From: Candidatus Magasanikiibacteriota bacterium
GTDB lineage: Bacteria > Patescibacteriota > Patescibacteriia > Magasanikbacterales > GWA2-37-8
Reading direction: 5' to 3'
DNA length: 64,000 nucleotides
NCBI GenBank assembly: GCA_026396515.1
Contig: JAPLWQ010000003.1
Location: 163,569-227,568, forward strand
How positions within the stretch are numbered: position 1 is the stretch's first letter; each line of letters starts with the position of its first letter. This document shows positions 19,117-61,757 of the stretch, piece after piece. Below the pieces are notes generated by a model that saw only the letters and a program-made list of their open reading frames with translations, did no database searches and had not been told where the DNA came from. Both the position numbers and the translations under genes were made by a program.

Positions 19117-19176
19117 TTGAATATGGAACAAAAATACAGTCTTGACTCCGCGTAATCGCTAAAGAACGATATGGGG

Positions 19177-19229: not shown

Positions 19230-19230
19230 T

Positions 19231-19917: not shown

Positions 19918-19919
19918 TT

Positions 19920-20432: not shown

Positions 20433-20468
20433 ATTTAAAATTAAAAAAATTCATAATTCAATACACAT

Positions 20469-22397: not shown

Positions 22398-22403
22398 TAT
22401 ATT

Positions 22404-25360: not shown

Positions 25361-26668
25361 ATGTCATACTTGGTAATAAACGGAGGCAGGAAATTGAAAG
25401 GATCTATCGCAAACCAAACCGCCAAGAATTCGGCGGTAGCTATTCTTTGCGCCTGCGCTATGGTAAGAGGCAAGGTCAAATTGTTTGATGTGCCTGAAAT
25501 TGAAGAAGTGTACCGGATTATTGAGTTGCTTATCAGTATTGGCGTGAAGGTGGAGAAGCTGGGCCCGGGTAAATATATTCTTAATGCTTCTGGTAATCTT
25601 AATATGGAGCGCATCGATGCCGAAGCTTCCGAGAAGACGCGCTCGTCTCTTTTGCTTTTTGGCGCGCTGGCTGCAAGAGAGAAAAAATTCAGACTGTTTA
25701 AATCCGGCGGTTGTAAACTTGGCGAACGAACAGTGCGGCCGCATATTTACGCGCTGGAAAAATTTGGCGTAAAAATTTTTTCGCGGGAAAACTATTTTGA
25801 GATAGAAAACCGCCATCCGTTGTCAGCTGCGAAAGTGGTTATGTATGAATCCGGTGACACAGCCACTGAAAATGCGGTGATGGCGGCGGTTTTAGCCAGA
25901 GGAAAAACAATAATAAAGATGGCTTCGGCCAATTACATGGTGCAGGATTTATGCTATTTTCTGAATAAAGCTGGCGCGAAAATTAAAGGTATTGGTTCAA
26001 CGACTCTAGAAATTGAAGGAGTTAAAAGGTTGAGTTCGGTCGGCTACTATCCGATAATGCCTGACCCGATTGTCGGTATGACCTATATTGCCGCCGGGAT
26101 AGTTACCGGTTCGTCAATCGTGGTGGAGAATTGTCCGATTGATTTTCTGGAACTTGAGTTGGAGAAATTGCACAGAATGGGCCAGAAGTTTGAAATAAAA
26201 AATCTGCGAAAATCAAAGAATGGCAAATTTGAGGTTGCTGACTTGATGATTGTTCCGTCCAAGCTGAACGCCTTGCCGGATAAGATAGAGTGCCGGCCAT
26301 ATCCTGGTTTGAATATTGATAACCTACCTCTATTTGTACCGGTAGTAGCAAAAGCTAAAGGCCGCACGCTACTCCACGATTGGCCGTATGAAAACAGAGC
26401 GGTAAGTTACATGGAAATGCAAAAGCTCGGTTTGAAAATTACCCTGCTCGATCCGCATCGCGTCTGGGTGGAAGGGCCGACCGATTTTAAATCAAATGAA
26501 GCCATTTGTCCGCCTATTTTGCGCGTAGCCGTAGTCTTGCTTCTTGGCATGATGGCTGCTAAAGGAAAATCAATTTTGCGCAATACTTATATGATTGACC
26601 GAGGTTATGAAGATTTTTATGAGACATTAAATCGGGCTGGCGCTGATATAAAAATAATTAATGAGTAA
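25361..26668 (+). CDS. murA: UDP-N-acetylglucosamine 1-carboxyvinyltransferase
   Basis: EPSP-synthase fold. Conserved N-terminus (INGGxxLxGxIxxQxAKNSAVAIL) and an active-site Cys-region analogue. Confidence 0.9.
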   Translation: MSYLVINGGRKLKGSIANQTAKNSAVAILCACAMVRGKVKLFDVPEIEEVYRIIELLISIGVKVEKLGPGKYILNASGNLNMERIDAEASEKTRSSLLLFGALAAREKKFRLFKSGGCKLGERTVRPHIYALEKFGVKIFSRENYFEIENRHPLSAAKVVMYESGDTATENAVMAAVLARGKTIIKMASANYMVQDLCYFLNKAGAKIKGIGSTTLEIEGVKRLSSVGYYPIMPDPIVGMTYIAAGIVTGSSIVVENCPIDFLELELEKLHRMGQKFEIKNLRKSKNGKFEVADLMIVPSKLNALPDKIECRPYPGLNIDNLPLFVPVVAKAKGRTLLHDWPYENRAVSYMEMQKLGLKITLLDPHRVWVEGPTDFKSNEAICPPILRVAVVLLLGMMAAKGKSILRNTYMIDRGYEDFYETLNRAGADIKIINE

Positions 26669-44985: not shown

Positions 44986-46605
44986 CTATTCTTTTGTTTC
45001 AATTAGTTCGGTGGTTGTAATATTCCGCAATTTTAGCCAGCGTCTTTCGAACGCCTCCTTAAGCGATACAAATTCCGGTACTTTTAATAGCCAGCAGATA
45101 AAGCCATAAACGGCGAATCCTATCAACCCCGCGACCAGACCCTGGCCGAGTACGCCGAAAAAATAATTCATATCAAAGATTTTTGCCAACGGATATTTCA
45201 AAAATTGAATCACAACAGCCATGGCAATGGCGGCAATGGAAATACGGTAAAGCGATGCAATTAATTTTTCTCCCTCAATCCCGCCGGTAGCCTTTCGCAG
45301 ATATATTACGAGTAGGGTCATATTAAGTACGGCGCCGACTGAAGAGGCAAGAGCCAAGCCGGCGACTCCGAGCGGGCGCATTAAAATAAGAGCCGCGATG
45401 ATTGCTATTAGCTCTGTAATTACACCGATCACAAAAGGTGTTTTTGTGTCGGAAAGGGAATAGAAAGAGCGCGCCAGAAGAGGAATTAATGATTGAGCGA
45501 AAAGTCCGAATGCAAAAAAGGCGAGGGCATCGGCTGTGGCTGTAGTGGCGGACCAATCGAAAGCGCCGGATCCAAGCACCACGCGAACAATCTGCGCGCG
45601 CAATAAAAGTATTATGACGGACATGGGAATTACTAGGAAGAGAATCTGCCGGGCGGTGCTGCTTAGGTATTTTAAGAAGTCGGCGGAATTATTCCTTGCT
45701 GCCGCAGCTGACAGTAAAGGAAAAACCGCCAAGGCAAATGGGATGCCGATAATGCCCGTAGGAACCGCTTGCAGGTTGTTGGCGTAATTGTAAACAGCTA
45801 CACTGCCTATCGGTAAAAGTGATGCCAAAATAGTAACTACAAAAACATTGAGTTCGGTGATTGCTAAGCCGAGAGTGCGTGGTATCATCAGTTTTGCCAC
45901 CAAGCGGGTTTCCGCGTCTTTAAGGTCGAATTGCCAGTGCCAGCGCCAACCGGCTCCGCGAGCCCCGATCATTTGAAGCGAACAGTGAAGTGCCGCGCCG
46001 AGAACGACTCCCCAGGCAAGACCAATTGGACCGAATAATTTAACCAGAAATACTGCACCGACTATGATACCCAGGTTATAAAAAATTGGAGCGATTGAAT
46101 AGAAAACAAAACGCCCCAGCGATTGAAGAACACCTCCAAGCGTCATGGATAAACCGAAAAAGAGCGGTGATATGAACATTATTCTGGTGAGTGATACAGT
46201 CAGCTCGCGGCTTGCTTCAGAAAAGCCCGGTGCGACAACCGGTATGAGCCAAGGGGCAAATACCATGCCTACAATGCTGAGAACGGCGATGACCAATCCG
46301 CCAATGTTAAAAATGTTGTTGGCCAGGCGCCAGGCAGGACTTTTTTCTTCACCGGAGTAAAATAATTTAGTAAATGTCGGTATAAAACCGGCGGTTAGAG
46401 CGCCTACGATCAGTAAAGTGTAGATAAGGTCCGGTATTTTAAACGCGGCGTAATATGCGTCCATAATTTCCCCGGCTCCGAAATAGTGGGCAAGAACACG
46501 GTCCCGTATCAAACCGATGATTTTACTTAACAAAGTAGCCGAGGCGATAATAATAGCCGCGCCGGTAACTGTTTTTGACTGATTGTTTAATCTATCCAAT
46601 ATCAT
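44986..46605 (-). CDS. murJ: Lipid II flippase MurJ/MviN
   Basis: 14-TM MOP superfamily with a conserved N-terminal region (LSKIxGxxRDxxLAxxFGAG). Confidence 0.85.
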   Translation of the reverse strand: MILDRLNNQSKTVTGAAIIIASATLLSKIIGLIRDRVLAHYFGAGEIMDAYYAAFKIPDLIYTLLIVGALTAGFIPTFTKLFYSGEEKSPAWRLANNIFNIGGLVIAVLSIVGMVFAPWLIPVVAPGFSEASRELTVSLTRIMFISPLFFGLSMTLGGVLQSLGRFVFYSIAPIFYNLGIIVGAVFLVKLFGPIGLAWGVVLGAALHCSLQMIGARGAGWRWHWQFDLKDAETRLVAKLMIPRTLGLAITELNVFVVTILASLLPIGSVAVYNYANNLQAVPTGIIGIPFALAVFPLLSAAAARNNSADFLKYLSSTARQILFLVIPMSVIILLLRAQIVRVVLGSGAFDWSATTATADALAFFAFGLFAQSLIPLLARSFYSLSDTKTPFVIGVITELIAIIAALILMRPLGVAGLALASSVGAVLNMTLLVIYLRKATGGIEGEKLIASLYRISIAAIAMAVVIQFLKYPLAKIFDMNYFFGVLGQGLVAGLIGFAVYGFICWLLKVPEFVSLKEAFERRWLKLRNITTTELIETKE

Positions 46606-46620: not shown

Positions 46621-47331
46621 TTATTGTGCCGGGCTTGAAGAATTGCTGGTTGTAGTAACGGCATTGGACGGAGGCAAGTTGATAATTAAATAGGCGTAAG
46701 AAATTATTTTCTTTTCTTCACCCGGTTCCACGTAGATTGTCCCGCTTAATCCGTCACCTCGTGTAAATGTGAGTTGGGTGAAAGTTAATCCGGCGGTTTC
46801 GGATTCAATTGAACAGTTCGCATCTATCAGATTGTTTTTGTAATATGCCATCATCGTCTTGGCATCGCCCGAGATGTCGCGCCATTCGATTTGGACAGTA
46901 TCCCGGGTATCGCCAACAGGTTCGGTGAATGTTCTCCAAAGTTCGCGGATTATTCCCGGCCGTCTATTTTCGCCCGATTGCCCGGCGTCGTTGTTTAAAA
47001 TTAACGGCGAAAGAATCAGTTTTGGAAAAAGTGCGGATACCTCCATGCTGCGGCTTTTGTATCGTCCGGTAATATGGGTAATCTTATCAATATTATATTC
47101 ATCATAAATTGGGATGCCAGCGGGAAAATTCGGCGGCAAATTTTTTATTTCTCTTGGGCCAGATCCTATGAATATTTTAATTCCGATAATAATTCCAACC
47201 ACAAAAATTAAGATAAAACCACAGCCGCTCATACAAGCGGTTGTCAGCCATGGTCCGCGTTTTTTTAGTTCCTGAATCGGCGGCTCGATGATTTCTACGT
47301 CGATAATTCGGTCATCGGGGTTTGTGGTCAT
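46621..47331 (-). CDS. Hypothetical membrane-anchored protein
   Basis: N-terminal TM helix. No motif. Co-directional with murJ. Confidence 0.4.
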   Translation of the reverse strand: MTTNPDDRIIDVEIIEPPIQELKKRGPWLTTACMSGCGFILIFVVGIIIGIKIFIGSGPREIKNLPPNFPAGIPIYDEYNIDKITHITGRYKSRSMEVSALFPKLILSPLILNNDAGQSGENRRPGIIRELWRTFTEPVGDTRDTVQIEWRDISGDAKTMMAYYKNNLIDANCSIESETAGLTFTQLTFTRGDGLSGTIYVEPGEEKKIISYAYLIINLPPSNAVTTTSNSSSPAQ

Positions 47332-48833: not shown

Positions 48834-48935
48834 TTTAATTTTAGCCAATATTTATGTGGCGTTTTGTGTTGACGTATGTAGCTATGTGGTATAAAATGGA
48901 ATGTAGTGGTGGAAAGTGGTAAATATCCAGTTTTT

Positions 48936-49367
48936 ATGTTTATTGGCGAATACTCCCACAATCTAGATGACAAAGGGCGATTGGCGATACCGATAAAATT
49001 TCGTGCTGAGCTCAAAGGGGGTGCGGTGGTAACCAGAGGCCTGGATAACTGTCTTTTTCTTTATACAAGAAATGAGTGGGAAAAACTGGCAGAAAAATTG
49101 GCCGCTTTGCCCATCAGCCAGTCTAACAGCCGGGCGTTTGCCCGTTTGATGCTGGCAGGAGCGATGGATGTGGAGGTGGATAAACAGGGCCGGGTGGTCC
49201 TGCCGGAATATCTTCGGGTGTTTGCAAGCCTAAAAAAAGAAGTGGTCGTGGCCGGTTTATATAGCCGCCTGGAAATTTGGGACGAATCAAAATGGAAAGC
49301 ATATAAAACTCAGACAGAAGCCGAGAGCGGTGAGATTGCCGAACGAATGGCTGAATTGGGAATTTAA
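48936..49367 (+). CDS. mraZ: Transcriptional regulator MraZ
   Basis: Two DxxGR repeats (DDKGRLAIP, DKQGRVVLP). Preceded by TTGACG...TGGTATAAAAT promoter. Confidence 0.85.
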   Translation: MFIGEYSHNLDDKGRLAIPIKFRAELKGGAVVTRGLDNCLFLYTRNEWEKLAEKLAALPISQSNSRAFARLMLAGAMDVEVDKQGRVVLPEYLRVFASLKKEVVVAGLYSRLEIWDESKWKAYKTQTEAESGEIAERMAELGI

Positions 49368-49368
49368 T

Positions 49369-50277
49369 ATGAGACACGAATCGGTGCTTTTAAATGAAAT
49401 CATAGAGTTATTAAAACCAAAAAAAGGAGACAGAGTAATTGACTGTACGCTGGGAGATGGCGGCCATGCTGAAGCGATTCTTAATCTGATCGGCGAAAAG
49501 GGCAAATTGCTTGGCATCGATGCAGACCCTGAATCATTGCTTCGGGCAAAAAGATATTTATATAAATTCGGCGAAGGTGCTGTTTTTGCCAGAGACAATT
49601 TTAAAGACTTAAAAAAAATCGCCCAGGCAAACGGATTTGAAGAAGTTGATGCGATACTGATGGATCTTGGCTGGTCATCGCCCCAGTTTGAGGAACGGGG
49701 CAGGGGATTCTCATTTGAAAAAGACGAACCGCTGGATATGAGGTTTGATCCGAATGATGCCAAGCGGGAAACAGCAGCCGCTATTTTGAACAACAGCAGC
49801 AAACCGGAGTTGGTAAAAATTTTCAAACAATTCGGTGAGGAAAAATTTTCAGACGATATTGCGTCGGCAGTGGTTGAAAAAAGAGCAATTGAACCTGTTC
49901 TCACCACAAAACAATTAGTAGGCATAATACTGTCTGTCTACCGCGAAAAACTACACACCGATAAAGAAGTGCCTTGGACAGGCGGGTCACACCCGGCGAC
50001 AAAAATTTTTCAGGGATTGCGGATCGCAGTAAATCAGGAGCTTGAGTCATTAAAACAAGCATTGCCTCAAGCTGTTGACTTGCTAGCAATCGGTGGGCGG
50101 TTGGCGGTTATCACCTTTCATTCGCTTGAAGACAGAATAGTGAAGCAATTTTTTGCCGGAATTGCCGGTAAACAAATCGGGCTAATCAATAAAAAGCCAA
50201 TCGGACCGGATCAGCAGGAAATAGCAATTAACAGGCGCGCCAGGAGCGCTAAAGTAAGAGCAGTAATAAAATTATGA
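49369..50277 (+). CDS. rsmH: 16S rRNA (cytosine1402-N4)-methyltransferase
   Basis: HxPVLL N-terminus and DxTxGxGGH SAM motif. Position after mraZ. Confidence 0.9.
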   Translation: MRHESVLLNEIIELLKPKKGDRVIDCTLGDGGHAEAILNLIGEKGKLLGIDADPESLLRAKRYLYKFGEGAVFARDNFKDLKKIAQANGFEEVDAILMDLGWSSPQFEERGRGFSFEKDEPLDMRFDPNDAKRETAAAILNNSSKPELVKIFKQFGEEKFSDDIASAVVEKRAIEPVLTTKQLVGIILSVYREKLHTDKEVPWTGGSHPATKIFQGLRIAVNQELESLKQALPQAVDLLAIGGRLAVITFHSLEDRIVKQFFAGIAGKQIGLINKKPIGPDQQEIAINRRARSAKVRAVIKL

Positions 50278-50645
50278 TTTTAAAAAGAAAAATTAAATAT
50301 CAGATTGAGCATTACAAGCGATTGTTGCTCGGTTATTGCCGATGCTTATCGATTCCGGCGTGGATATATGGATATAAAGCCCGCCTCGCCTATGCCGGCG
50401 TCTTTGCTTCGTTACTTTTGGCCTATATTTGTCAGGTCAGTGTTGCTTCAGGCAGTGGATATGAAGTGAATGACCTGCAAAAACGGGTAGCTGATCTTAA
50501 ATCGGAAATACAAAAAATAAACGTTGAGGTTGCGAGTCTGAACGCATTGCCAAATTTGGAAAAAAGAGTTCAGACCTCGGGCATGATTGCTGTTGCTTCA
50601 ATTAAATATGTCAAGCCGGCCGATATCGCCGTTGCCAAAAAATAG
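50274..50645 (+). CDS. FtsL-like small bitopic division protein
   Basis: Single TM then a coiled coil. Positioned after rsmH. Call is by position and architecture only. Confidence 0.45.
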   Translation: MILKRKIKYQIEHYKRLLLGYCRCLSIPAWIYGYKARLAYAGVFASLLLAYICQVSVASGSGYEVNDLQKRVADLKSEIQKINVEVASLNALPNLEKRVQTSGMIAVASIKYVKPADIAVAKK

Positions 50646-50710
50646 GTAACTCTCCATAGCCGTTCAAGTCGCCGCGTGCTCCTTGGACGGCTGTTTTATT
50701 TATGGTATAA

Positions 50711-51100
50711 TTGATATTGAAGAATTTCATTATGCTATATTTGATATTACAGCGTTTGTTTTTTGAAGCGCTGTTAGACGCGCTGTATTTTCCGTTTTGG
50801 TGGTACACCGGCGGCGTAAAGCACGCCATGTTTTGGTGCGCCGATATGTTCCAAGTGGGAAACAAAAATTTGTCTCCCGGATTGTGGTTAAAAAATATTT
50901 TTGTTCCGATGTTCGGTCAATATGATATTCAAGGCCGGATTATCAGTTTTCTAATGAGATTTTTTCAGGTGCTGGGCCGCGGATTCGCTTTGTTAATTTG
51001 GCTAATTTTTTGTCTGGCACTGTTTATTGTCTGGTTGGCGATACCGGCAGTTATTGTCTGGGGTTTGGTCGGTTCATTTCTTCCCGCGGCAAAAATATGA
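50711..51100 (+). CDS. Hypothetical small membrane protein
   Basis: Three or four TM helices. Overlaps the start of the next gene. Confidence 0.35.
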   Translation: MILKNFIMLYLILQRLFFEALLDALYFPFWWYTGGVKHAMFWCADMFQVGNKNLSPGLWLKNIFVPMFGQYDIQGRIISFLMRFFQVLGRGFALLIWLIFCLALFIVWLAIPAVIVWGLVGSFLPAAKI

Positions 51101-53871
51101 TGTTTGATCAATTATCGCAACTTAATGTTTTAGCCTGTCCATCGTGCAAAGGGACCGGTTTGGTTGGTTTTAAGAAGTGTTCGCAGTGCAAGGGCGCTTC
51201 GCTTGGTTTATGGCGAAGGAATAAATTGCTCGTTTGGAGCTACCCTCTCACCAGATACAATCTGGCGTTGCTCAACGGCCGTAGAATTTGGAACAAAATC
51301 AGACGCGTTACCCTGATTGTCCTCTGGCTAAACTGCTGGGTTTGGTTTTTGTTTTTAATTTACAGAAGCGGAGCGGCAATAAATTTTATTTCCTCGCCAT
51401 TAGAGTGGCCGGCAGCTTTTTCAGCGCTGTACGGACAGTATAAATTTTTGTTTTGGCTGGGGGCTATTTTTTTGTGCGCTTTGTGGTATCGCGTGATTGT
51501 GGAGAGAAATAAAGCCGGATTGGTGGAGAAATATGATTATAAGAAAAAGGATATTGCTGACGCGCCGCAGAGCGGGTCTATATCCGACTGGTCTCAGGTA
51601 AAAACTATTACAAATAGTAAGCGTTTGGTAATAAATAGCGCTTTTACCGACGAAGCCATGTCCGCCCTGGGAGAAGCATATCGTTTTGCCGATAAACATA
51701 ATTATCCGATGGTTGCAGCGGAGCATCTTTTTTATGCCCTGCTTTCTTTTAACCGCATATCAAATATTTTTATTCGGCTGGGAATCCCGTCCAAGGCCTT
51801 GCAGGATGATGTCTCCGCCTCACTGGGCTCGCCGGCTAAAACGCAGAATTCTTCCTCAATGCCCCTTTTGTCTGTTGATCTTCAGCAAATATTGTTTAGG
51901 TCGTATGAAGAGGCGTATGAAGCACATCAGGATTACGTCAGTGTTACTGAACTCTTAGTAGCGGTGATTAAACAGTCGCCTTTTTTGCAGGAATTAATGT
52001 ATGATTTGAATGTCGAAAAAGATAAATTAATGAATGTGGTTGAATGGGCGAGAATCAGAGAAAGGCTATACCGGCAGTACGTTAAATTATCACGGGCGGC
52101 GAGCAGTCGGTCTAAAACCGGGATGGATAAAGCGATGACGGCATTAGCCACTCCGTTTTTGAATTCTTTCAGCGAAGATATGACGCTACTCTCGCAGCTT
52201 GGCCATTTTGATTATTGTGTTGCCAGAGAAAAAGAGGACGAGGAGATTTTTCGGGTGGTTGACGGCGGGGGAATGAATGTAATATTGGTTGGCCCTCATG
52301 GCGTAGGAAAACGAACAATTGTTGAAGGACTTGCGGAAAAAATGGTTGAAGATGATGTTCCGCCGCGTTTACAGGATAAGCGCTTGGTGAAATTGAGCAT
52401 ATCGTCGCTTCTTGCCGGGACAACGCCTGCGGGAGCTATTGAAAGGCTGATCGGCATAATGAACGATATTGCAAAGGCCAGAAATGTTATATTGTTTATT
52501 CATAATATCCATGAGCTAGTCGGCGTCGCGGCCGGCGGTGGAGGCAGTTTGGATGTCGCCGACACACTCTCCGAGTATTTAAAGAGAGGTCATTTTTTTA
52601 CTATTGCTACCACCACCGATGAAGAATATGCTCAGCATATTGCCGACTCCACTTTATCAAACGTATTTACAAAGATAGATGTAAAAGAAATGGATGAAAA
52701 TCAGGCTATTCAGGTGGTTGAGTCGAAAATTGGCGCTTTGGAACATAAAAATCATGTATTTTTTGCCTACAGTGCGGTAGAAAAATCCGTTCAGTTATCG
52801 GCACGTTATTTGCACGAAATATATTTGCCGGGTAGTGCTTTGGAAATTACCAGCGAGGCAGCTGCTTATACACGATCAAAAAAAGGAGATGACTCTCTGG
52901 TTACTGCCGAGGAAGTCGCGGCCGTTGTATCAGATAAAACCGGCATACCGGTAACTTCGGTTACAACAGATGAATCAAGCAAATTATTAAAGCTTGAAGA
53001 AGAGATGCACCAGCGGGTAATCGGCCAGGAAGAAGCGGTTGATCTGGTGGCGAATGCCTTGCGACGCGCCAGAGTTGAAATCAGATCAAAACAAAGGCCG
53101 ATTGCCAACTTTTTATTTCTTGGTCCGACCGGTGTGGGTAAGACTGAATTGGCAAAAACAATAGCCGATGTATATTTTGGCGGTGAAGAGCGAATGACCC
53201 GGATAGATATGAGCGAATATCAGGATAAGACCGGCATTTATCGTTTAATAGGGGCGCCCGGAGAAAAAGGAACTGGAATTCTTACCGAAGCAATTCGTAG
53301 GCATCCGTTTACTCTGCTGTTGCTCGATGAAATTGAAAAAGCTGATCCGGATATTTTAAATTTATTCTTACAGGTTATGGATGACGGCCGTTTAACGGAT
53401 AGTACCGGGAAAATAGTTGATTTTACCAATGCAATATTGATCGCCACATCAAACGCCGGCACTTCATATGTGCAGGAGCAGATGCGGGCGGGTATTGCAT
53501 CAGACGCCATTAAAGAGCGCCTTCTGCACGGAGAATTAAAACAGTATTTCCGTCCGGAATTTTTAAATCGTTTTGATGGTATTGTACTGTTTAAAGCGCT
53601 GGTACTTGATGATATTAAAAAGATCGCTGGAATAATGTTGTCGCGAGTGGCAAAAGATCTTGAAGCAAAAGGCATGGAATTAGTGATTGAAGATTCGGCT
53701 CTGGACTTTCTCGCATCCGTTGGATTTGACCCTGAATTCGGTGCGCGTCCGATGCGGCGCGCTCTTCAGGAACGCGTTGAAAATAAATTGGCCGAAATGA
53801 TTTTGTCAGGCTTGGTTAAGCGCCGTGATAAAATTGTACTCGGTGAAGGGGGGTCGCTAACAGTCGTATAA
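51099..53871 (+). CDS. Membrane-anchored ClpA/ClpC-like double-AAA+ protein with an N-terminal Cys4 zinc ribbon and a degenerate first ATPase module
   Basis: CPSCKGTG...CSQCKG ribbon. Two TM helices. Clp_N-like repeat. D1 Walker A GPHGVGKRT (Thr replaced by Arg) and Walker B IHNIH instead of IDExH. D2 canonical: GPTGVGKTE, LLLLDEIEKA, sensor/arginine finger, and C-terminal ClpB_D2-small. Start chosen at ATG 51099 (MMFDQL). Confidence 0.8.
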
Positions 53872-53873: not shown

Positions 53874-54227
53874 ATGTTTTACTTGCTTAAAGTATTGATT
53901 AAGGATCCTTGGATAATTGCGCCTCTGCTTGTTTCAGCGGGAGGGCAATTGTTTATGTGGCCGTATATAATTATCAAGCTTAGCGCCACGGGTGAACAGG
54001 CTTTTTTGCATTATAATAATATTTTTGGAATTGATTTGGTCGGCGCCTGGTGGAAAGCATTATATTTGCCGCTCGGCGGGTTGGCCATCATTTTAATAAA
54101 TTATTTGCTGATTTTTTATTCTTATAACACTGATAAAATTATCGCGCGTTTATTATCATTTAGCGTCGGATTGTTTCAGCTTTTTTTGGTGTGGGCGGTT
54201 TATTTGATGGTTGAAATTAATTTATAA
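53874..54227 (+). CDS. Hypothetical small membrane protein
   Basis: Three TM helices. 117 aa. Confidence 0.35.
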   Translation: MFYLLKVLIKDPWIIAPLLVSAGGQLFMWPYIIIKLSATGEQAFLHYNNIFGIDLVGAWWKALYLPLGGLAIILINYLLIFYSYNTDKIIARLLSFSVGLFQLFLVWAVYLMVEINL

Positions 54228-54233: not shown

Positions 54234-55343
54234 ATGTTGGAACGAGTGGCCGAGAAAAAGACTGATCGTCTTTTTTTGCTTTATGTGGCTATACTGATTT
54301 TATTCGGTCTGGCTGCTTTAGCCTCTGCCAGCGCACCGTATGGCTATAGCCGTTTTGGCGATATCTACTATTTTGTAAAAAGGCAAATTTTTTATGGGTT
54401 ATTGCCGGGATTATTAATATTTTTTATTTTTATCCGTTTTAAGGCTAGGTTTTGGCAACGTGTCAGTTGGGTTGCATATTTTGCCTGTCTAGCGGCTCTG
54501 ATAATAGTATTTATTCCTGGAGTGGGTGCGGATTTTAATAAATATGCAAAGAGCTGGATTGATATCGGTTTTTTTCATTTTCAACCGGCGGAATTTGTAA
54601 AGCTCGGTCTGATTATGGTTTTGGCTCAAATGTTAAGCGACCCCAGGCGCGACCTGAGAGATTTCAAACACGGTCTCTTGCCTGTGCTTGGCGTTATAGC
54701 GCCGGTGATGTTTTTAGTTCTATTTCAACCGGATATTGGAACGCTGGCGGTGTTGGGTGGCATCTCTTACAGCATGTTATTTTTAGCAAAGACACCAAAG
54801 ATTTACTTGGCAATAATCGGCCTGCTTGGCGTTGCCGGTTTTGCATTAATAGCCTTAGTTGCACCCTACCGCATGGATCGTTTAACCATTTTTTTACATC
54901 CCGAACTTGATCCTCAGGGCGTCGGCTATCACGTAAACCAGGCGTATCTGGCGGTCGGCTCCGGTGGTTTTTGGGGGCTTGGGCTTGGCCATTCACGGCA
55001 AAAGCACGCCTATCTTCCGGAAGTTCAGGCCGACTCCATATACGCTGTTATTGCCGAGGAGCTCGGTTTCTTATTTTCTGCCGGTCTTATGGTTTTCATC
55101 TTACTTATTGCGTGGCGGGGTTTCAATATCGCCAAAGAGGCGTCAGATGAATACGGCTATTTACTTGTTTGCGGAATTATGGTTTGGTTCTTTTGGCAAT
55201 CGTTTATAAATATCGGAGCAATGGTCGGGTTATTGCCTTTGACAGGTGTCACCTTACCCTTTGTCAGCCACGGCGGGTCGTCTCTTATGATTAGCCTGGC
55301 GGCGGTGGGTATTGTTGCCAGTGTCAGCCGTGGATCGCGATAA
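54234..55343 (+). CDS. ftsW: SEDS family peptidoglycan polymerase (FtsW/RodA)
   Basis: About 10 TM helices. Conserved C-terminal PLTGVTLPFVSxGGSS motif. Confidence 0.85.
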   Translation: MLERVAEKKTDRLFLLYVAILILFGLAALASASAPYGYSRFGDIYYFVKRQIFYGLLPGLLIFFIFIRFKARFWQRVSWVAYFACLAALIIVFIPGVGADFNKYAKSWIDIGFFHFQPAEFVKLGLIMVLAQMLSDPRRDLRDFKHGLLPVLGVIAPVMFLVLFQPDIGTLAVLGGISYSMLFLAKTPKIYLAIIGLLGVAGFALIALVAPYRMDRLTIFLHPELDPQGVGYHVNQAYLAVGSGGFWGLGLGHSRQKHAYLPEVQADSIYAVIAEELGFLFSAGLMVFILLIAWRGFNIAKEASDEYGYLLVCGIMVWFFWQSFINIGAMVGLLPLTGVTLPFVSHGGSSLMISLAAVGIVASVSRGSR

Positions 55344-55499: not shown

Positions 55500-56342
55500 A
55501 TGGATTTATCTATAATCACCGTTACCCACAATGATAAAGATCAAATGGCGGGCCAGCTGGAATCCGTAGAGTCTGCGGCCCGCGATATTAGCGTTGAGCA
55601 ATGGGTTGTTGATAATGGATCAGAGGATGGCACCGCGGAGTTGGTCAGCAAAAATTTTCCGGAAGTGAATATTATAAAAAATTCCGATAACACCGGTTTC
55701 GGCCGTGCCAATAATCAGGCGGCGAAAAAATCCGCCGGCGATTTTTTCCTTTTTTTAAACCCTGATATGCGCTTAGAAGAGCGGGGGTTAGATAAGATTG
55801 TTGCTTGGATGCGGGCGCATCCTGAAGTCGGTATCGCCAGTTGTAAGCTAATTTATGAAAATGGAAAGTTTAATGAAAATGCTAAGCCGCGGCGCTTTCC
55901 CCGTTTGTCAGACCAGATAGCGATTCTTTTGAAGTTACCGCACATATTTCCAAACATACTTGGCGGATACTTGTATAAAGATTTCGATGAAAACAAGGAA
56001 CAGGAAGTTGATACCGTGCGTGGATCATTTATGCTTATGCGTCGTTCACTTTATGAAAAACTCGGTTGGGCTTTCGATCCGCGATACTTTATCTGGTTTG
56101 AAGATGTTGACACTTGCCGTGAGTGCAGGAAATTAGGAATGAAAGTCGTATACACGCCGATTATTTCTTGCGTCGACTATGTCGGCCAGAGTTTTAAAAA
56201 AATGCCGGTAATATGGAAACAGAAAAATTTTACAAAAAGCATGCTGCAGTATTTTCAGAAATGGGAGCCATGGTATAAATGGATCTGGGTTGCGGCGCTT
56301 AGGCCGGTAGCAATCGCATTCTCCGCCATAAATAAGAAATAA
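55500..56342 (+). CDS. GT2 family glycosyltransferase
   Basis: SIITVTHN...NxGFGxANN...DxD (NPD) motifs. Confidence 0.8.
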   Translation: MDLSIITVTHNDKDQMAGQLESVESAARDISVEQWVVDNGSEDGTAELVSKNFPEVNIIKNSDNTGFGRANNQAAKKSAGDFFLFLNPDMRLEERGLDKIVAWMRAHPEVGIASCKLIYENGKFNENAKPRRFPRLSDQIAILLKLPHIFPNILGGYLYKDFDENKEQEVDTVRGSFMLMRRSLYEKLGWAFDPRYFIWFEDVDTCRECRKLGMKVVYTPIISCVDYVGQSFKKMPVIWKQKNFTKSMLQYFQKWEPWYKWIWVAALRPVAIAFSAINKK

Positions 56343-56349
56343 TTTTTTT

Positions 56350-57441
56350 ATGCATAAATTAAGCGTAAATTTGGTTGTCTGCAACGGCGCAAGGTATCTT
56401 CCGTTTATGATTGAGTCGTTAAAGCATCAATTGTTCAAGGATTTTGAAATGATCGTTGTCGACAATGCTTCAACTGACGGCACGGTCGATTTGATAAAAA
56501 AGAGCATGGTTGATTCAGGAATTGAATATCGTTTGATTCAGAATATTGAAAACCTTGGTTTCTCCCATGGTCATAATCAAGCTTATAAGGAAACGCAGAC
56601 GCCGTATTTTGTTCTGATTAACGCTGATACATATTTGATGCCTGACGTGTTGGGGAAAGCGGTATCCTTTTTAGACACCCACACTAATACCGCCGCGGTT
56701 GCTCCACGATTGATGCGTTGGGACTTTGAAATTACGCGTACAGGAATTGGTAGCGGATCCGACTATTCGGCTGTGGCGCGTCAGGGTTTCACTTCGCAGA
56801 TAGACGCTATCGGTATACGGCTGTTTCGCAATCGTCGCGCCGTTGAATGGCTTACCAAACAGGAATGGGCCAAGGATAGCTCTTCGATTGATGTGCAAAA
56901 AATATTTGATAAAAATGTCCTGGAAGTTTTCGGCGTATCCGGCGCTTTCGCGGTTTACCGGAAGAGTGTTATTGATAACGTTCGCCTTCCGGGCGAGAAC
57001 ATGTTTGACCCTACATATCATTCATATAAGGAAGACTTGGATTTGGCGTACCGCTTGCGTAATGCCGGTTACGTTTCCTACGTAATCCTTGACAGCGTTG
57101 TTTATCACGACCGAACAGGAGCCGGACCGATGAAAATGAGCGACTGGGCCGCACTGAAAAACAAAACACGTCAGACATTTTTTGTCCGTTATCATTCATA
57201 TAAAAATCATTTGCGTACTCTATATAAAAATGAATATTGGCAGAATTTCCTGATTGATCTTCCTCTTATTTTCTGGTACGAACTGAAAAAGTTTTTTTAC
57301 ATTCTGTTTATCGACCCGAAAGTAATTTTCATGGGATGGTCGGATATAATTAAGAACCGCAAGTATACCTGTGAGGCGCGTAAGGCGGTCATAAAATCAA
57401 GGCGCATGTATTGGAAAGGGCTGCGAAGATGGTGGTTATAA
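56350..57441 (+). CDS. GT2 family glycosyltransferase
   Basis: LVVCNGARYL...VDNASTDGT...NxGFSHGHN...DAD. Confidence 0.8.
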   Translation: MHKLSVNLVVCNGARYLPFMIESLKHQLFKDFEMIVVDNASTDGTVDLIKKSMVDSGIEYRLIQNIENLGFSHGHNQAYKETQTPYFVLINADTYLMPDVLGKAVSFLDTHTNTAAVAPRLMRWDFEITRTGIGSGSDYSAVARQGFTSQIDAIGIRLFRNRRAVEWLTKQEWAKDSSSIDVQKIFDKNVLEVFGVSGAFAVYRKSVIDNVRLPGENMFDPTYHSYKEDLDLAYRLRNAGYVSYVILDSVVYHDRTGAGPMKMSDWAALKNKTRQTFFVRYHSYKNHLRTLYKNEYWQNFLIDLPLIFWYELKKFFYILFIDPKVIFMGWSDIIKNRKYTCEARKAVIKSRRMYWKGLRRWWL

Positions 57442-57444
57442 AAT

Positions 57445-58275
57445 ATGTTTGACGTTTGTGTAACAATAGTAAACACAAAGGAGCGTGCGGAGATAGAGAA
57501 ATCTCTTGATTCGTTATTCGCCGATTCGATGGAGTCCGGGCTAAATTTTGGCATTGCCGTAATTGATAATTCGTCCGGTGAAGCCGTGGAGGAATTGGAA
57601 AAAAAATACACAAATTTACGAGTTCTCAGGCAGGAGAGAAACATGGGTTTTGGCTATTCGCACAATCGTGCGTTTGAGGCCGTAACGGCGAAGTACTATT
57701 TTATACTCAATCCGGACACCGAATTTCCGGCCGGTCAGAATTTTCTCCGTAGATTAGTAAAATTTATGGATGAAAATCCTAAGATTGGAATGGCTGGTCC
57801 AAAGATATTTTATCCGGACGGTTCTTTACAATATTCCTGCTATCGTTTTCCCTCTTTTTTTCAGCCCGTTTTTTCCAGAACAAGCGCCGGGCAGACCGAA
57901 ACCGGAAAAAAAGCCACCGGCAGGTACTTAATGAAAGATTTTGATCATAATCTTTCGATACCTGTTGACTGGGTTATGGGTTCCGCCATGATTTTTCGCC
58001 GTGCGGCTTATGAGCAGATCGGCGGTTTTGATGAAAGGTATTTTATGTATGCGGAGGATAGCGATTTGTGCCGCCGTCTTTGGGAAGCGGGTTGGGCGGT
58101 TTATTATGTTCACGACATTCATCTGCGCCATACGCACGGGCGGGCGTCGGCAAAAGTGCCCGGTGTTTTTCGGGCACTAATAAAAAATCCATTTACCCGC
58201 GTTCATATTTACAGCTGGTTGAAATACTTTTTTAAATGGCGCAATAATCGCCATTATTATCCGCACGATATATGA
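57445..58275 (+). CDS. GT2 family glycosyltransferase
   Basis: DNSSGE...NxGFGYSHN...NPD...EDSD motif. Confidence 0.8.
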   Translation: MFDVCVTIVNTKERAEIEKSLDSLFADSMESGLNFGIAVIDNSSGEAVEELEKKYTNLRVLRQERNMGFGYSHNRAFEAVTAKYYFILNPDTEFPAGQNFLRRLVKFMDENPKIGMAGPKIFYPDGSLQYSCYRFPSFFQPVFSRTSAGQTETGKKATGRYLMKDFDHNLSIPVDWVMGSAMIFRRAAYEQIGGFDERYFMYAEDSDLCRRLWEAGWAVYYVHDIHLRHTHGRASAKVPGVFRALIKNPFTRVHIYSWLKYFFKWRNNRHYYPHDI

Positions 58276-59366
58276 GTTTACCGAAAACGGCAATTATATA
58301 TCTGTGCTGGGCCGATGAACCGAAAAAGTATTTGGGCGCGGCGCTTGATGCTATTGCAGGGCAAACATATCCGAAAGAGGGGACGATGGTAGTAGTTGTA
58401 TATAATGGTCCCCGTTCAGGTGAAGAATCTCAGCTGGACTATATTAGAAATGAGATCAATGATAAACGGCATAGATTGCCCGATACCGTTGTCCTTGAAC
58501 CGGGAGGTAATGTCGGCTTTTCAGCAGGGAATAATTTTGGCGCCAGATATGCGGTGGAACATGGCGCCGATTATATTTTTTTGCATAATGCCGATGGCTT
58601 TTTGAAAAATACTGCGATAGCTGAGTTGGTTAGGGTCATGGAAAGTGATAAAAATATAGGGGAGTGCCAGCCTTTAATACTTCTATACCCCGAAAGGCAT
58701 CTGATTAATTCAGCAGGAAATGAGTTCCATTATTTGGGTATAGGATTTTGCGCGAGCTACCGCGATGCAGTTAAGGATGTGTATCCGGTTTTTTCCGAAA
58801 TAGGATATGTCAGCGGAGCGGCCGCATTTATGCGCGCTGACCTTCTAAAGCAATTTGGATACTGGAGCGACAGGTTTTTTCTTTATCATGAGGACACCGA
58901 ATATTCGCAGCGTTTAAAAGTTCGTGGTTATAAAATCGGTATGGCTGGCCAGGCGGTGTTTTATCACCAATATGAGTTTTCTAATAAGCCGAATAAGTTT
59001 TTTTGGATTGAGCGGAATCGGCACGCGCTTAAATTGTTGTTCTATAAATGGCCGACATTGATTCTGCTTCTGCCTTTGGAAATAGTGTATAATGTCGGTT
59101 TACTGTTTTTGTCAGCAGTAAACGGGTGGTTTCCTGAATTGATTAAGGTTTACGGATATTGGTTAAAACCAAAAAACTGGAGAGGATGGCTTGCCGACAG
59201 GAAAATATTGCAGAAGCAGAGAATCGTCAGCGACCGCCAAATGATTTTCCGCGCGGCTGTCGGAGTGGGGACAGGGGATTTGCGTCTTCCGGCCATAATA
59301 CGAGTAAGCGTTAATTTCATCTTTACAATTTATTGGTATTTACTTAAAATACTTATCTGGTGGTAA
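58272..59366 (+). CDS. GT2 family glycosyltransferase with C-terminal TM helices
   Basis: NVGFSAGNN...HNAD...HEDTE motif. ATGA overlap with the previous GT2. Confidence 0.7.
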   Translation: MSLPKTAIIYLCWADEPKKYLGAALDAIAGQTYPKEGTMVVVVYNGPRSGEESQLDYIRNEINDKRHRLPDTVVLEPGGNVGFSAGNNFGARYAVEHGADYIFLHNADGFLKNTAIAELVRVMESDKNIGECQPLILLYPERHLINSAGNEFHYLGIGFCASYRDAVKDVYPVFSEIGYVSGAAAFMRADLLKQFGYWSDRFFLYHEDTEYSQRLKVRGYKIGMAGQAVFYHQYEFSNKPNKFFWIERNRHALKLLFYKWPTLILLLPLEIVYNVGLLFLSAVNGWFPELIKVYGYWLKPKNWRGWLADRKILQKQRIVSDRQMIFRAAVGVGTGDLRLPAIIRVSVNFIFTIYWYLLKILIWW

Positions 59367-59382
59367 TAAGATTCGTTACATT

Positions 59383-60474
59383 ATGAAGATATTAGTCTGT
59401 GGCGGCGCCGGGTTTATCGGCTCAAATTTCATCCATCATATTCTGGAAAAGCATCCGCATTATGAGGTGGTGAATTATGACAAGCTAACCTACGCCGGGA
59501 ACCTGGACAATTTAAAAGATATTGAGAATAAATTGGAATATTCGACCCGGTACACCTTTATTAAAGGTGATATTTGCGATTACAAACTTTTGGCCGAGGT
59601 TGTTGAAAAGTATAAAATTGATCACGTAATAAATTTTGCCGCGGAAACTCATGTTGATAGGTCAATTTTTGGAGATTGCTCGGACTTTGTTATGACCAAC
59701 ACCTACGGCGTTCTAATGTTGTGTAATTTAGTGCGTTATTTTGGTCTGCAAAAATTTGTTAATGTTTCAACCGATGAAGTCTATGGAACCCTTGGCCTTA
59801 ATGATGAGCGCCGTTTTACCGAGCTAACTCCGATCGAACCGAATATGCCATATGCGGCGGCAAAAGCCGGTGGCGATATGATTTGTCGATCGTATTTTGT
59901 AACCCACAAAATTCCGGTAGTGGTGACGCACTGCTCCAACAATTACGGTCCGTATCAACATCCGGAGAAACTGATACCGTCGTCAATTTTCAGATTATTA
60001 AAAAATAAGCCGATATTGCTTCACGGATCCGGCGTTAATGTGAGAGACTGGATATATGTGCGCGATCATTGTGCCGCGCTCGACCTGATGCTCCACGAGG
60101 GCAAGCCGGGCGAGATATATAATGTCGGGGTTGACAATGAACGCAATAATTTGGAGATTTCGAAAATGATTTTGTCGCTAATGAACAAATCCGAGAATAT
60201 GATTGAGTTTGTTGAAGACCGGCCGGGAAATGACTTGCGCTATGCAATTGATGCCGCTAAATTGGAGGCACTGGGATGGAAACCTATTTATGATCGCGGC
60301 CAATTTGAAATCGGAATGTCGGAAACGATTAACTGGTATTTGACTCACCGCGATTGGGTTGAGGCACTATGGTCAAAGCACGAGGACGCTTACAAAATCA
60401 ACCACGCCCCGACCAGAGAGAAGCGGGAAAAATCACATGATGAAAAAATCGAGTCGGGTGAAAAAATTATTTAA
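59383..60474 (+). CDS. rfbB: dTDP-glucose 4,6-dehydratase
   Basis: MKILVCGGAGFIGSNF. Catalytic region ...DEVYG... and PYAAAKAGGD (YxxxK). 363 aa. Confidence 0.9.
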   Translation: MKILVCGGAGFIGSNFIHHILEKHPHYEVVNYDKLTYAGNLDNLKDIENKLEYSTRYTFIKGDICDYKLLAEVVEKYKIDHVINFAAETHVDRSIFGDCSDFVMTNTYGVLMLCNLVRYFGLQKFVNVSTDEVYGTLGLNDERRFTELTPIEPNMPYAAAKAGGDMICRSYFVTHKIPVVVTHCSNNYGPYQHPEKLIPSSIFRLLKNKPILLHGSGVNVRDWIYVRDHCAALDLMLHEGKPGEIYNVGVDNERNNLEISKMILSLMNKSENMIEFVEDRPGNDLRYAIDAAKLEALGWKPIYDRGQFEIGMSETINWYLTHRDWVEALWSKHEDAYKINHAPTREKREKSHDEKIESGEKII

Positions 60475-60483
60475 TATCATAAT

Positions 60484-60888
60484 ATGCAATTGGATTTCAA
60501 AAGAATGTCATTAAAATTGGTGGTGAACGAGAGGGCGACGTACAGCTTTGCCGAACTTAAAGAATTTGTCGATTTTGAGGTAAAAAGAATCTATTTTATT
60601 CAGAATTGCAAGCAGGCCACTAACCAGCATTGTCATAAGGAAGAAAAAGAGTTGTTTGTTATGGCTAAGGGGATGTGCACTGCGATTATTGACCGCGGAA
60701 ACGGCAAGGAAGAAATAGCATTAGTATCTCCTGGAGATGCCATATATGTGGGAAATTATGTGTGGCACGGTTATAAGGATTTTAGCGACGACGCAGTTTT
60801 GCTCGCCGTATCGTCCACCAATTACCGTGAAGACAGGAGCGACTATATTGAAGATTACGAAGAGTACAAAAAAGTAATTGCAGCATAA
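60484..60888 (+). CDS. Small RmlC-like cupin (FdtA/WxcM-type dTDP-sugar 3,4-ketoisomerase-like)
   Basis: 134-aa cupin between rmlB and rmlD. Conserved His in HGYKDF context. Confidence 0.45.
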   Translation: MQLDFKRMSLKLVVNERATYSFAELKEFVDFEVKRIYFIQNCKQATNQHCHKEEKELFVMAKGMCTAIIDRGNGKEEIALVSPGDAIYVGNYVWHGYKDFSDDAVLLAVSSTNYREDRSDYIEDYEEYKKVIAA

Positions 60889-60890
60889 TT

Positions 60891-61757
60891 ATGAACGAAA
60901 AAGTATTGATTCTCGGAGCGAAGGGGATGCTTGGCCAGGAGCTGGTAAAGATTTTTAGTAAAAATGATTTTGATGTAGTTGCCTGGGACAAGGCAGAACT
61001 TGATTTATCAACTAACAATTTTTCTGAAAACATTGTCGCCTTAAAACCCGCAATTATTATTAATGCTTCGGGATATAATAAAGTTGACATGGCTGAAACA
61101 GATGATGCTGAAAAAAAACTTGCCTTTGTGGTCAATGCGGAGGCTCCTAAAATTTTGGCTGAAACAGCGAAGAGCATCGGAGCGATTTTCGTCAATTATT
61201 CAACCGACTTCGTCTTTGATGGCGTGAAAGCAGGGGGTTATACGGAGACAGACACGCCAAATCCGCTCAGTGTCTATGGAGAGACAAAGTATCTCGGAGA
61301 AAAAAATGTCGAGAGCGTAGGGGGAGAGTATTATATTATTCGTCCGGCAAGAATTTTTGGCAGACAGGGGAGCGGGGACGGTAAAAAAAGTTTTGTGCAA
61401 ATAATGTTGGAGAAGAGCGACCTGCCAGAAGTAAAAGTGGTAAGCGACGAGCGTGGCAGTATTACCTATGCGCCCGACCTGGCTCAATTCACATTCGACC
61501 TGATAAGCCATAAGGCAAAGCCCGGGATCTACCACGGCGCCAATTCCGGTTCATGCAGTTGGTTTGAATGGGCCGAAGAAATATTCAGATTAATAGGGAA
61601 GAGTCCGAAATTAATACCCATTTCTTCGTCAGAGTTTAATAACCCGGCTAAGCGGCCAGTTGATTCAACGCTGGTCAACACAAAAACCGCGTTGCAGAAA
61701 CCATGGGGTGATGCTCTGCGCGAATTTATTGCGGACTATACCGCAAATCAAAAATAA
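60891..61757 (+). CDS. rfbD: dTDP-4-dehydrorhamnose reductase
   Basis: ILGAKGMLGQ Rossmann. TDFVFDG...YGETKYLGE catalytic YxxxK. 288 aa. Confidence 0.85.
   Translation: MNEKVLILGAKGMLGQELVKIFSKNDFDVVAWDKAELDLSTNNFSENIVALKPAIIINASGYNKVDMAETDDAEKKLAFVVNAEAPKILAETAKSIGAIFVNYSTDFVFDGVKAGGYTETDTPNPLSVYGETKYLGEKNVESVGGEYYIIRPARIFGRQGSGDGKKSFVQIMLEKSDLPEVKVVSDERGSITYAPDLAQFTFDLISHKAKPGIYHGANSGSCSWFEWAEEIFRLIGKSPKLIPISSSEFNNPAKRPVDSTLVNTKTALQKPWGDALREFIADYTANQK

Follow-up and report, generated by a model that had tools for sequence, protein, structure and literature searches.

A Patescibacteria family of membrane-anchored Clp/Hsp100-like proteins with a degenerate D1 module and a small membrane partner

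We describe a gene of a Candidatus Magasanikiibacteriota bacterium that encodes a membrane-anchored, Clp/Hsp100-like double-AAA+ protein. The gene lies in a stretch of 64,000 nucleotides of contig JAPLWQ010000003.1 (positions 163,569 to 227,568), referred to here as the window. Judged by its motifs, the first AAA+ module (D1) of this Clp-like protein is a conserved pseudo-ATPase and the second (D2) is catalytically complete, including the trans-acting Arg finger; both modules have lost the aromatic residues of their pore loops. A small gene for a membrane protein is found directly upstream. From this combination we infer, tentatively, a ClpP-independent, D2-driven remodelling ATPase that would work at the membrane face with an obligate partner and act on envelope biogenesis.

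Domain layout and the two AAA+ modules

The longest open reading frame (ORF) containing the gene runs from a TTG codon at 50998 to 53871 on the + strand. The ATG at 51097 was chosen as the biologically sensible start and yields a product of 924 residues. This product is 100% identical to a 924-residue NCBI entry named 'AAA family ATPase' from Candidatus Magasanikbacteria bacterium.

The protein is homologous over its full length to class-I Clp/Hsp100 proteins and has their domain order: Clp_N, first and second AAA+ module, D2-small. Pfam models match Clp_N at residues 194–244, AAA_lid_9 at 534–599, AAA_2 at 667–827 (E-value 1e-51) and ClpB_D2-small at 838–913 (3e-24). The NCBIfam ClpA model aligns from end to end, with residues 186–911 covering profile positions 4–728, and the ClpB model matches as two separate stretches. 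None of the NCBIfam equivalog cut-offs is reached (ClpB 578 bits versus 1232, ClpA 528 versus 993, ClpV 462 versus 885, ClpG 454 versus 1900). Among the PDB sequence matches are a ClpC chain, with an E-value of 1e-128, and a ClpE structure (29hb). An AlphaFold2 (AF2) model computed from 51 homologues has a mean predicted local distance difference test (pLDDT) score of 80.3. Foldseek searches with this model return ClpC, ClpB and ClpC1 chains, ClpC and ClpB with a probability of 1.00.

The solved ClpC structures of S. aureus and B. subtilis served as references for a residue-level alignment of the motifs, which were then compared across 120 close homologues (56–83% identity). In D1, the Walker A motif is GPHGVGKRT versus GEPGVGKTA in ClpC, and the residue after the P-loop Lys is Arg in 63 and Lys in 40 of the homologues. 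The Walker B motif (ILFIHNIHELVG) contains FIHNIHE versus FIDELHT. Its catalytic pair takes the form [HNQ]N, with Asn in 115/120 sequences. The Arg fingers are lost as well (SNVF versus ERRF, RR to SN), and the pore loop AGTTPAGAIERL has no Tyr, in contrast to AGTKYRGEFEERL in ClpC (KYRGEF to TTPAGAI). This loop follows the pattern TTPAGA(I/V), and its Pro is found in 107 of the homologues. Because the changes are conserved in the 120 homologues, a sequencing error is excluded as their source, and the block conservation of 0.64–0.84 argues for purifying selection on D1.

In D2, Walker A, Walker B, the sensor-1 Asn, the Arg finger in FRPEFLNR and sensor 2 in GARPMRR are invariant or nearly so in all 120 homologues. 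The pore loop is the part that deviates: GAPGEKGTGILTE is four residues shorter than GAPPGYVGHDDGGQLTE in ClpC and lacks any aromatic residue, GAPPGYVG being replaced by GAPGEKGTG. In the homologues it reads G-x-P-G-E-K-G-[TS]-G. A dead D1, an intact D2 and the loss of both pore loops are also observed in 42 metagenome copies at 49–71% identity.

No middle (M) domain is found in the protein: the alignment skips ClpC residues ~407–462 and the AF2 model has no insertion at this place. At the position of the ClpP-binding tripeptide, the window protein has AGI versus AGF in S. aureus ClpC, and close relatives have x-G-[LVI]. The position is not conserved in the 42 further copies, which show LVQGVSL, MNDGVDL, IRKNTSF and NSRGATH, among others. 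The AF2 model places a four-residue turn between two helices here. Since the tripeptide position is variable and modelled as a short turn, the data suggest that the ClpP-docking loop is absent from the family, with some residual doubt for the window copy. Neither the window nor ~90 flanking loci contain a clpP gene.

The N-terminal region carries a Cys4 zinc ribbon followed by a transmembrane (TM) hairpin. The ribbon is matched weakly by the Pfam model DnaJ_CXXCXGXG at residues 12–34 (17 bits versus a cut-off of 32.7). It has a single Cys4 center, formed by CPSCKGTG and CSQCKG; the DnaJ-type zinc finger (PF00684) is defined by repeated CxxCxGxG motifs. Its four Cys residues are retained in 106–107 of the 120 homologues and are invariant in one alignment (A1). 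Hydropathy analysis indicates two TM helices, at residues ~70–91 and 116–136. The N terminus is assigned to the inside of the cell because residues 1–70 contain 13 Lys or Arg versus one Asp or Glu; the interhelical loop is neutral. The resulting topology is N-in/C-in, with the ribbon, the N-domain and both AAA+ tiers on the cytoplasmic side. The extracytoplasmic loop of ~26 residues is the least conserved part of the protein (0.37–0.41), and the cytoplasmic juxtamembrane segment (WxYW...) is well conserved. In the AF2 model, the ribbon is followed by a β-hairpin, one unbroken helix at residues 53–90, a second helix at 113–138 and a low-confidence tether to the N-domain.

Ribbon and TM region belong to the same ORF as the AAA+ modules and are present in 107 of the 120 homologues. 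The remaining 13 database entries lack the first ~35 residues, and at least one of these short entries is a genuine loss of the ribbon with the TM hairpin kept. In some family members, such as P0086 (locus L005, 10001–10180), all four ribbon Cys are lost (…LNILTNNKRAETRMGVYLRSKWLYW…), and the WxYW motif and the TM hairpin are retained. Residues 308–337 (nucleotides 52018–52107) form an additional basic helix between the N-domain and D1, NVVEWARIRERLYRQYxKxxRAAS, which is highly conserved and has no counterpart in ClpC.

Much of this layout had been anticipated in a preliminary description of the same DNA, made from the letters alone. The 924-residue double-AAA+ protein, its Cys4 ribbon, two hydrophobic helices and Clp_N-like region, and the missing long middle domain of ClpB are all confirmed by the profile searches, the alignments and the AF2 model. 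The same is true for the two Walker changes it named in D1: Arg in place of Thr/Ser after the P-loop Lys (Arg in 63 and Lys in 40 of 120 homologues) and HN in place of DE. Its two reservations, a sequencing error in D1 and an N-terminal region belonging to a separate upstream ORF, are removed by the conservation described above. Other points required correction. The start given there, 51099, is two bases off. D2 had been called fully canonical, which holds for the Walker motifs, sensor 2 and the small domain but not for the GYVG pore loop, and no conserved [LIVA]-G-[FL] tripeptide takes the place of the IGF/LGF loop it suggested looking for. Three losses are additional to those it listed: in D1 the Arg fingers and the pore-loop Tyr, in D2 the GYVG loop.

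Table 1. Position and supporting evidence of features in and around the Clp-like gene (window coordinates)
Feature	Coordinates	Strand	Evidence
mraZ	48906-49367	+	Pfam MraZ 3.5e-43
rsmH/mraW	49330-50277	+	Pfam Methyltransf_5 6e-97
ftsL-like gene, 123 residues, one TM helix (38-61) and coiled coil	50274..50645	+	Weak matches; conserved place after rsmH
Promoter-like site TGGACG-16 nt-TATAAT, extended -10 TG, just 5' of the small ORF	50684..50711	+	Consensus scan, 10/12 matches; not evidence of function
Small partner gene, 122 residues from ATG 50732 (longest ORF from TTG 50711, 129 residues)	50732..51100	+	ORF; family of 177 clusters; AF2
Clp-like gene, membrane-anchored Clp/Hsp100-like double-AAA+ protein, 924 residues	51097..53871	+	ORF, Pfam/NCBIfam, alignment, AF2, Foldseek
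Cys4 zinc ribbon, residues 14-31 (CPSC...CSQC), resembling DnaJ CxxCxGxG	51136..51189	+	Conserved Cys, weak Pfam match
TM hairpin: TM1 ~71-90, outer loop 91-116, TM2 ~117-136, predicted N-in/C-in	51307..51504	+	Hydropathy, charge bias, AF2
Clp_N-type N-domain, residues ~183-303	51643..52005	+	Pfam; ClpA model from residue 186; ClpC N-domains align
D1 putative pseudo-ATPase and lid, residues ~355-600	52159..52896	+	ClpC alignment, 120 homologues, Pfam AAA_lid_9
D1 Walker A GPHGVGKRT	52291-52317	+	Alignment to ClpC
D1 pore loop AGTTPAGAIERL	52414-52449	+	Alignment to ClpC
D1 Walker B ILFIHNIHELVG	52489-52524	+	Alignment to ClpC
D2, predicted active ATPase module, residues ~625-830: GPTGVGKTE, LLLLDEIEKA, sensor-1 N786, FRPEFLNR	52969..53586	+	Pfam, ClpC alignment, conservation
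D2 pore loop GAPGEKGTG, no GYVG tyrosine	53251-53277	+	ClpC alignment
D2-small domain with sensor 2 (GARPMRR)	53608..53835	+	Pfam ClpB_D2-small; sensor 2 kept 120/120
117-residue membrane ORF	53874..54227	+	Homologues in L001, L003, L004 and 4/36 metagenome loci
ftsW (SEDS family)	54234..55343	+	Pfam 3e-96; TIGR02614 355 bits, above the cut-off of 337.5

Family breadth, the small partner gene and the neighbourhood

To place the protein among its relatives, 1.84 billion cluster representatives (clusters at 50% identity) were scanned with HMMER and the best 150 matches were taken. Nearly all of these are ~900 residues long and align from about residue 10 to the C terminus, at 32–58% identity. 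Motifs were counted in the 137 of them with at least 800 residues. D2 Walker A is present in 137/137, D2 Walker B in 136/137 and a TM segment in the N-terminal region in 135/137. In D1, the DE pair of Walker B is found in 7/137, the RR Arg fingers in 12/137 and an aromatic residue in the pore loop in 8/137. No representative has GY[VIL]G in D2 (0/137). An aromatic residue at any place of the D2 loop, which is 8 to 19 residues long across the family, occurs in 26/137. The CxxC...CxxC ribbon is seen in at least 71/137; other members have a compact CxxCxGxGCxxC ribbon, and a few have no ribbon.

All named members that were looked up come from a 'Patescibacteria group bacterium' and are called ClpC, ClpA or AAA family ATPase. 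By these profile matches, the membrane-anchored architecture is that of a large family of Patescibacteria, or candidate phyla radiation (CPR), which current annotation lumps with ClpC. This is at odds with the lineage-specific component proposed in the preliminary description, since the same architecture fills the best 150 matches. The objection raised there, that the architecture might already be a well-annotated family, is not upheld either: no Pfam or NCBIfam model is specific to it, and the full-text literature searched contained no description of a membrane-anchored or D1-dead Clp protein in CPR, a TM7x transcriptome paper mentioning only a 'predicted clp protease'. A scan of genome contigs with residues 1–618 as the query gave one locus, on the same contig as locus L001.

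The small partner consists of two long helices and a hydrophobic C-terminal membrane segment. Its AF2 model (pLDDT 92.8) places the helices at residues 2–47 and 66–116, and the conserved motifs are YFPxWWYxxG and PGLWLKNIFVPMFGQYDxQGRxISFFMR. The family comprises 177 clusters, all annotated as hypothetical. No Pfam or NCBIfam model matches the protein, and a Foldseek search of its model against the PDB gave nothing significant (best E-value 2.4). Its end, with the TGA stop, shares four nucleotides (ATGA) with the start of the Clp-like gene, and this overlap suggests that the two genes are translationally coupled. By eye, a hairpin followed by a T-run is seen 3' of the ftsL-like gene (50650–50711); its loop has 13 nucleotides, hence the scan did not call it. 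Together with the promoter-like site, the hairpin and T-run suggest a possible separate transcription unit made up of the small ORF and the Clp-like gene.

Conservation of the pair was followed in 80 metagenome loci that were fetched with the small-partner alignment and annotated by phmmer. The Clp-like gene lies directly 3' of the small ORF in 68/68 distinct loci with room for it. In four distant loci (L088, L089, L090 and L091), whose Clp-like proteins are 32–43% identical, a hidden Markov model (HMM) of the small ORF detects a homologue directly upstream in 4/4 cases, with E-values of 1e-23 to 1e-39. None of these four loci has dcw genes around the pair, which is located in one case after rpmH-rnpA-yidD-yidC, in one after the ATP synthase operon and in one after tgt. 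Because the small ORF persists in the distant loci while the wider context differs, gene order indicates that the pair is the conserved unit and that its embedding in the dcw cluster is a feature of Magasanikbacteria-type loci. The preliminary description had noted two tiny membrane ORFs flanking the gene. Both are present, but only the upstream one is a conserved partner.

In the window, mraZ and rsmH (48906..50277) form the head of the dcw cluster. The ftsL-like gene that follows matches FtsL_Actino (28.7 bits versus a cut-off of 55) and FtsL_2, both weakly and below the cut-off. The order mraZ-rsmH-ftsL-like-small ORF-Clp-like is fixed in Magasanikbacteria-type loci, the only ones with the mraZ-rsmH-ftsL context, and an ftsL-like gene is found upstream in 57/63 metagenome loci. 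Downstream of the Clp-like gene, 30/36 loci have a GT4 transferase, 4/36 the 117-residue ORF and ftsW, and 2/36 a DUF192 gene. The 117-residue ORF, which belongs to no Pfam or NCBIfam family, was seen only where ftsW follows the Clp-like gene in the loci examined. This is the arrangement of ftsW in the window, in L001, in L004 and in four further loci. A GT4 gene also follows in two of the four distant loci (examples of this gene are L002 12788–13813 and L089 13671–14732). It scores higher with WecA (TIGR02380, 121 bits) than with MraY (TIGR00445, 85 bits), and both values are below the cut-off, which makes an mraY label premature.

None of ftsI and murC-F is found in the 64-kb window, in agreement with the preliminary description, which placed the gene in the slot between ftsL-like and ftsW where ftsI and mur genes normally lie. 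The slot itself is borne out in the window and in its Magasanikbacteria-type relatives but is absent in the distant members. The survey of synteny suggested there shows another order: the invariant neighbour is the small upstream ORF, and the commonest downstream gene is the WecA/MraY-family GT4 transferase, not ftsW. As the distant members lie outside dcw clusters and other neighbours are invariant or commoner, occupation of the ftsI slot is a local arrangement and weak evidence for a division role. Since murA (25361–26668), murJ (44986–46605, minus strand) and ftsW are present in the window, the organism appears able to make peptidoglycan, and the missing ftsI and mur genes may lie elsewhere in the genome.

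We also considered that ftsI or mur genes could be hidden in gaps between the conserved genes of relatives, but these gaps contain NYN, VanW, a LexA-methylase fusion or unknown ORFs instead. Of the insertions between the Clp-like gene and the GT4 gene, three are VanW-like, one is an NYN-domain protein and one is a C5 cytosine methylase fused to LexA/S24. These lineage-specific insertions are located at L050 3439–4338, L060 13220–14182, L064 13235–14155, L009 3733–4371 and L075 3622–5274. In one lineage (L005, 3504–9596; same contig as L038), a 2030-residue FG-GAP repeat/PG_binding_1 protein lies between the ftsL-like gene and the small partner.

Further features of the window lie outside the gene pair. 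Directly after ftsW, at 55500–61757, four consecutive GT2 genes are followed by rhamnose-pathway genes (an RmlB-like dehydratase, FdtA/cupin and RmlD), which looks like a cell-wall glycopolymer cluster. Between murJ and an RNase J-like β-CASP gene is a 236-residue membrane-anchored ORF with no family match (46621–47331, minus strand); its relatives are syntenic and have weak PF27226 (AF_1845) matches. A hrcA-grpE-dnaK-dnaJ heat-shock operon occupies 19171–23513, and its DnaJ has the full CXXCXGXG zinc domain. At 7485–11081, a sensor kinase of 1198 residues with GAF, five PAS and HisKA/HATPase_c domains is unusually elaborate for such a genome.

Readings of function

In the reading that we prefer, the Clp-like protein would form a ring under the membrane, in line with the conserved trans-acting Arg finger; D2 alone would drive this ring, and D1 would serve structurally or as an adaptor. 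It would work without ClpP, without coupling to DnaK and without processive threading of polypeptides in the manner of ClpA, ClpB or ClpC. Powered by ATP turnover in D2, it would instead bind, release or remodel clients at the inner membrane face in repeated cycles, and the parts that recognize these clients would be the ribbon, the N-domain and the small partner. The likeliest clients would be membrane proteins of envelope biogenesis or division, because the genes that recur nearby are those of a WecA/MraY-family transferase, of FtsL and of FtsW, the last together with glycopolymer genes, with yidC in a single case. The membrane-tethered Clp unfoldase with a pseudo-ATPase D1 that had been proposed earlier is thus retained in part: the protein is a tethered class-I Clp with a dead D1, but an unfoldase is doubtful, both pore-loop aromatics being lost and the ClpP tripeptide not conserved.

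Several observations weigh against this preferred reading. We infer hexameric assembly solely from the conserved trans-acting Arg finger, and the client set is guessed from a gene order that varies outside Magasanikbacteria-type loci, where the ATP synthase operon, tgt or yidC can lie upstream. The 26/137 representatives with an aromatic residue in the D2 loop keep it as GAPPGY/F.., and a quarter of the distant members with a long D2 loop still have GAPPG[YF]. Because of these 26, threading may be ancestral and may survive in some lineages. Furthermore, both degenerate pore loops are ~90% conserved in the Magasanikbacteria clade and could still contact a ligand. The similarity of AGI in the window copy to AGF in S. 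aureus also has to be considered; as the position is variable family-wide, binding of ClpP by this copy is unlikely.

A bolder form of the same idea, which we regard as speculative and rather improbable, is that the pair is a Patescibacteria-wide, probably essential non-threading machine and a bacterial counterpart of the Torsin/LAP1 logic. Its ATP hydrolysis would serve the assembly, activation or recycling of complexes for envelope synthesis or division (WecA/MraY-type transferase, FtsW, FtsL) at the inner membrane face. If this is true, the protein would be, to our knowledge, the first membrane-integral member of Clp/Hsp100; we know of no other.

In line with the preliminary description, which proposed a division or envelope quality-control component, the protein could be a dedicated component of the divisome or of peptidoglycan synthesis whose function would take the place of ftsI and the mur genes in the dcw cluster. 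We consider this unlikely. The fixed order of Magasanikbacteria-type loci, with an ftsL-like gene in 57/63, and the position of ftsW directly next in the window, L001, L004 and four further loci are compatible with it. Clp ATPases act on FtsZ and divisome proteins in other bacteria. A reported example is ClpX and FtsZ in M. tuberculosis (PMC2897852). However, neither a transpeptidase nor a Mur ligase can be replaced by an AAA+ ATPase, and their genes may be located elsewhere in this genome. Moreover, distant family members are found outside dcw clusters, and WecA, not MraY, gives the best score for the gene most often found downstream.

A slimmer chance is left for a membrane-tethered unfoldase that feeds ClpP, that is, an FtsH-like degradation machine made from a ClpC/ClpA-type ATPase, which would extract and degrade membrane or division proteins such as FtsL. 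In its favor, ClpC, ClpA and ClpB give the best matches by sequence and structure; ClpA, likewise devoid of an M-domain, can be aligned over its full length; the AGI of the window protein falls opposite the AGF of the ClpP loop in S. aureus ClpC; and the entry side of the ring would face the membrane, as in FtsH. This is opposed by the unconserved tripeptide position with its four-residue turn, the absence of both pore-loop tyrosines, the dead D1 and the lack of clpP in the window and flanking loci.

Still less probable is a Patescibacteria ClpB acting as a DnaK-coupled disaggregase at the membrane. By NCBIfam score (578 bits), ClpB is the closest match of D2, the AF2 model has a short, ClpB-like region in place of the ClpP loop, and the hrcA-grpE-dnaK-dnaJ operon lies in the same window. 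Nevertheless, the M-domain that couples ClpB to DnaK and the pore-loop Tyr needed for ClpB threading are both absent, the gene is unlinked to the heat-shock operon, and its constant neighbour encodes a membrane protein. A decaying relic, or a gene-call artefact with the fused N terminus of another ORF, would account for the many lost catalytic motifs and the 13/120 shortened entries but can be dismissed, being refuted by a continuous frame, hundreds of full-length relatives at 32–83% identity, invariant D2 motifs, D1 conservation, conserved synteny with the partner and the short entry that truly lost its ribbon yet keeps the TM hairpin.

Two further mechanisms were considered. An FtsK-like DNA translocase, prompted by the Lys in the D2 loop, was rejected, the loop being variable or deleted across the family. 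Transmembrane mechanotransmission as in FtsEX is disfavored by the short and poorly conserved extracytoplasmic loop.

Patescibacteria (CPR) comprise much of bacterial diversity; their genomes are tiny, and hardly any of them have been cultured. A protein of ~920 residues that is kept throughout the group with a constant small partner likely has an important role. Its presence hints at an ATP-dependent process, so far unstudied, on the cytoplasmic side of the CPR envelope machinery. It also challenges the default label 'ATP-dependent Clp protease ATP-binding subunit ClpC/ClpA', with its implication that unfolding is coupled to ClpP. For AAA+ proteins in general, it would represent a natural experiment, in which an Hsp100 scaffold is bolted to the membrane, D1 is structural, the gripping loops are deleted and D2 stays catalytically competent.

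Comparison with known systems

The Clp-like protein shares with ClpC, ClpA and ClpB the Clp_N domain, two stacked AAA+ modules with their lids and the D2-small domain, and is 30–41% identical to solved ClpC, ClpB and ClpC1 chains. As in ClpA, there is no M-domain. Unlike these proteins, it has a Cys4 ribbon, a TM hairpin, a dead D1 and a small membrane partner, and it lacks the pore-loop Tyr in both tiers and a conserved ClpP tripeptide. Accordingly, the features that define ClpA/ClpC/ClpE (a conserved ClpP tripeptide), the threading motors ClpA/B/C (KYR/GYVG) and ClpB/Hsp104 (the M-domain) are all absent.

ClpE and ClpX carry a Cys4 zinc module at the extreme N terminus, which is also its place in the Clp-like protein. 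However, both are soluble and keep an IGF-type ClpP loop and the pore tyrosines, and ClpE has no Clp_N domain. In the Clp-like protein, the ribbon is followed by the TM hairpin and Clp_N.

An N-terminal two-helix membrane anchor with a cytoplasmic AAA+ ring under the membrane is reminiscent of FtsH and of Msp1/Bcs1-type proteins. FtsH differs in its single AAA module, which is of the classical type and has an aromatic pore loop, and in its fused metalloprotease, and it lacks Clp_N, D1 and D2-small.

A double ring with one inactive tier has parallels in Pex1/Pex6 and NSF, where one tier is described as a conserved, non-hydrolysing structural ring and the other as the motor (PMC9265785, PMC6160233). 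They are soluble members of another AAA clade, and their active tier retains its substrate-gripping pore loops.

The Torsins with LAP1/LULL1 provide another parallel. They are described as membrane-associated proteins of the Clp/Hsp100-D2 lineage without aromatic pore loops, which have a membrane partner and in which a degenerate, nucleotide-free AAA-like module is found beside the active one (PMC5425593, PMC4358337). The Clp-like protein resembles them in being a membrane-associated AAA+ protein without pore aromatics, in having a membrane-protein partner and in placing a degenerate AAA-like module beside an active one. In contrast, Torsins are eukaryotic, lumenal and single-tier and lack an Arg finger of their own, whereas the Clp-like protein has an intact Arg finger, its dead module is the fused D1, and its partner is a helical protein of 120 residues without an AAA fold. 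Beyond the shared Clp D2 ancestry, the likeness to Torsin/LAP1 is taken as one of analogy only, and those to Pex1/Pex6, NSF and FtsH are likewise analogies rather than memberships.

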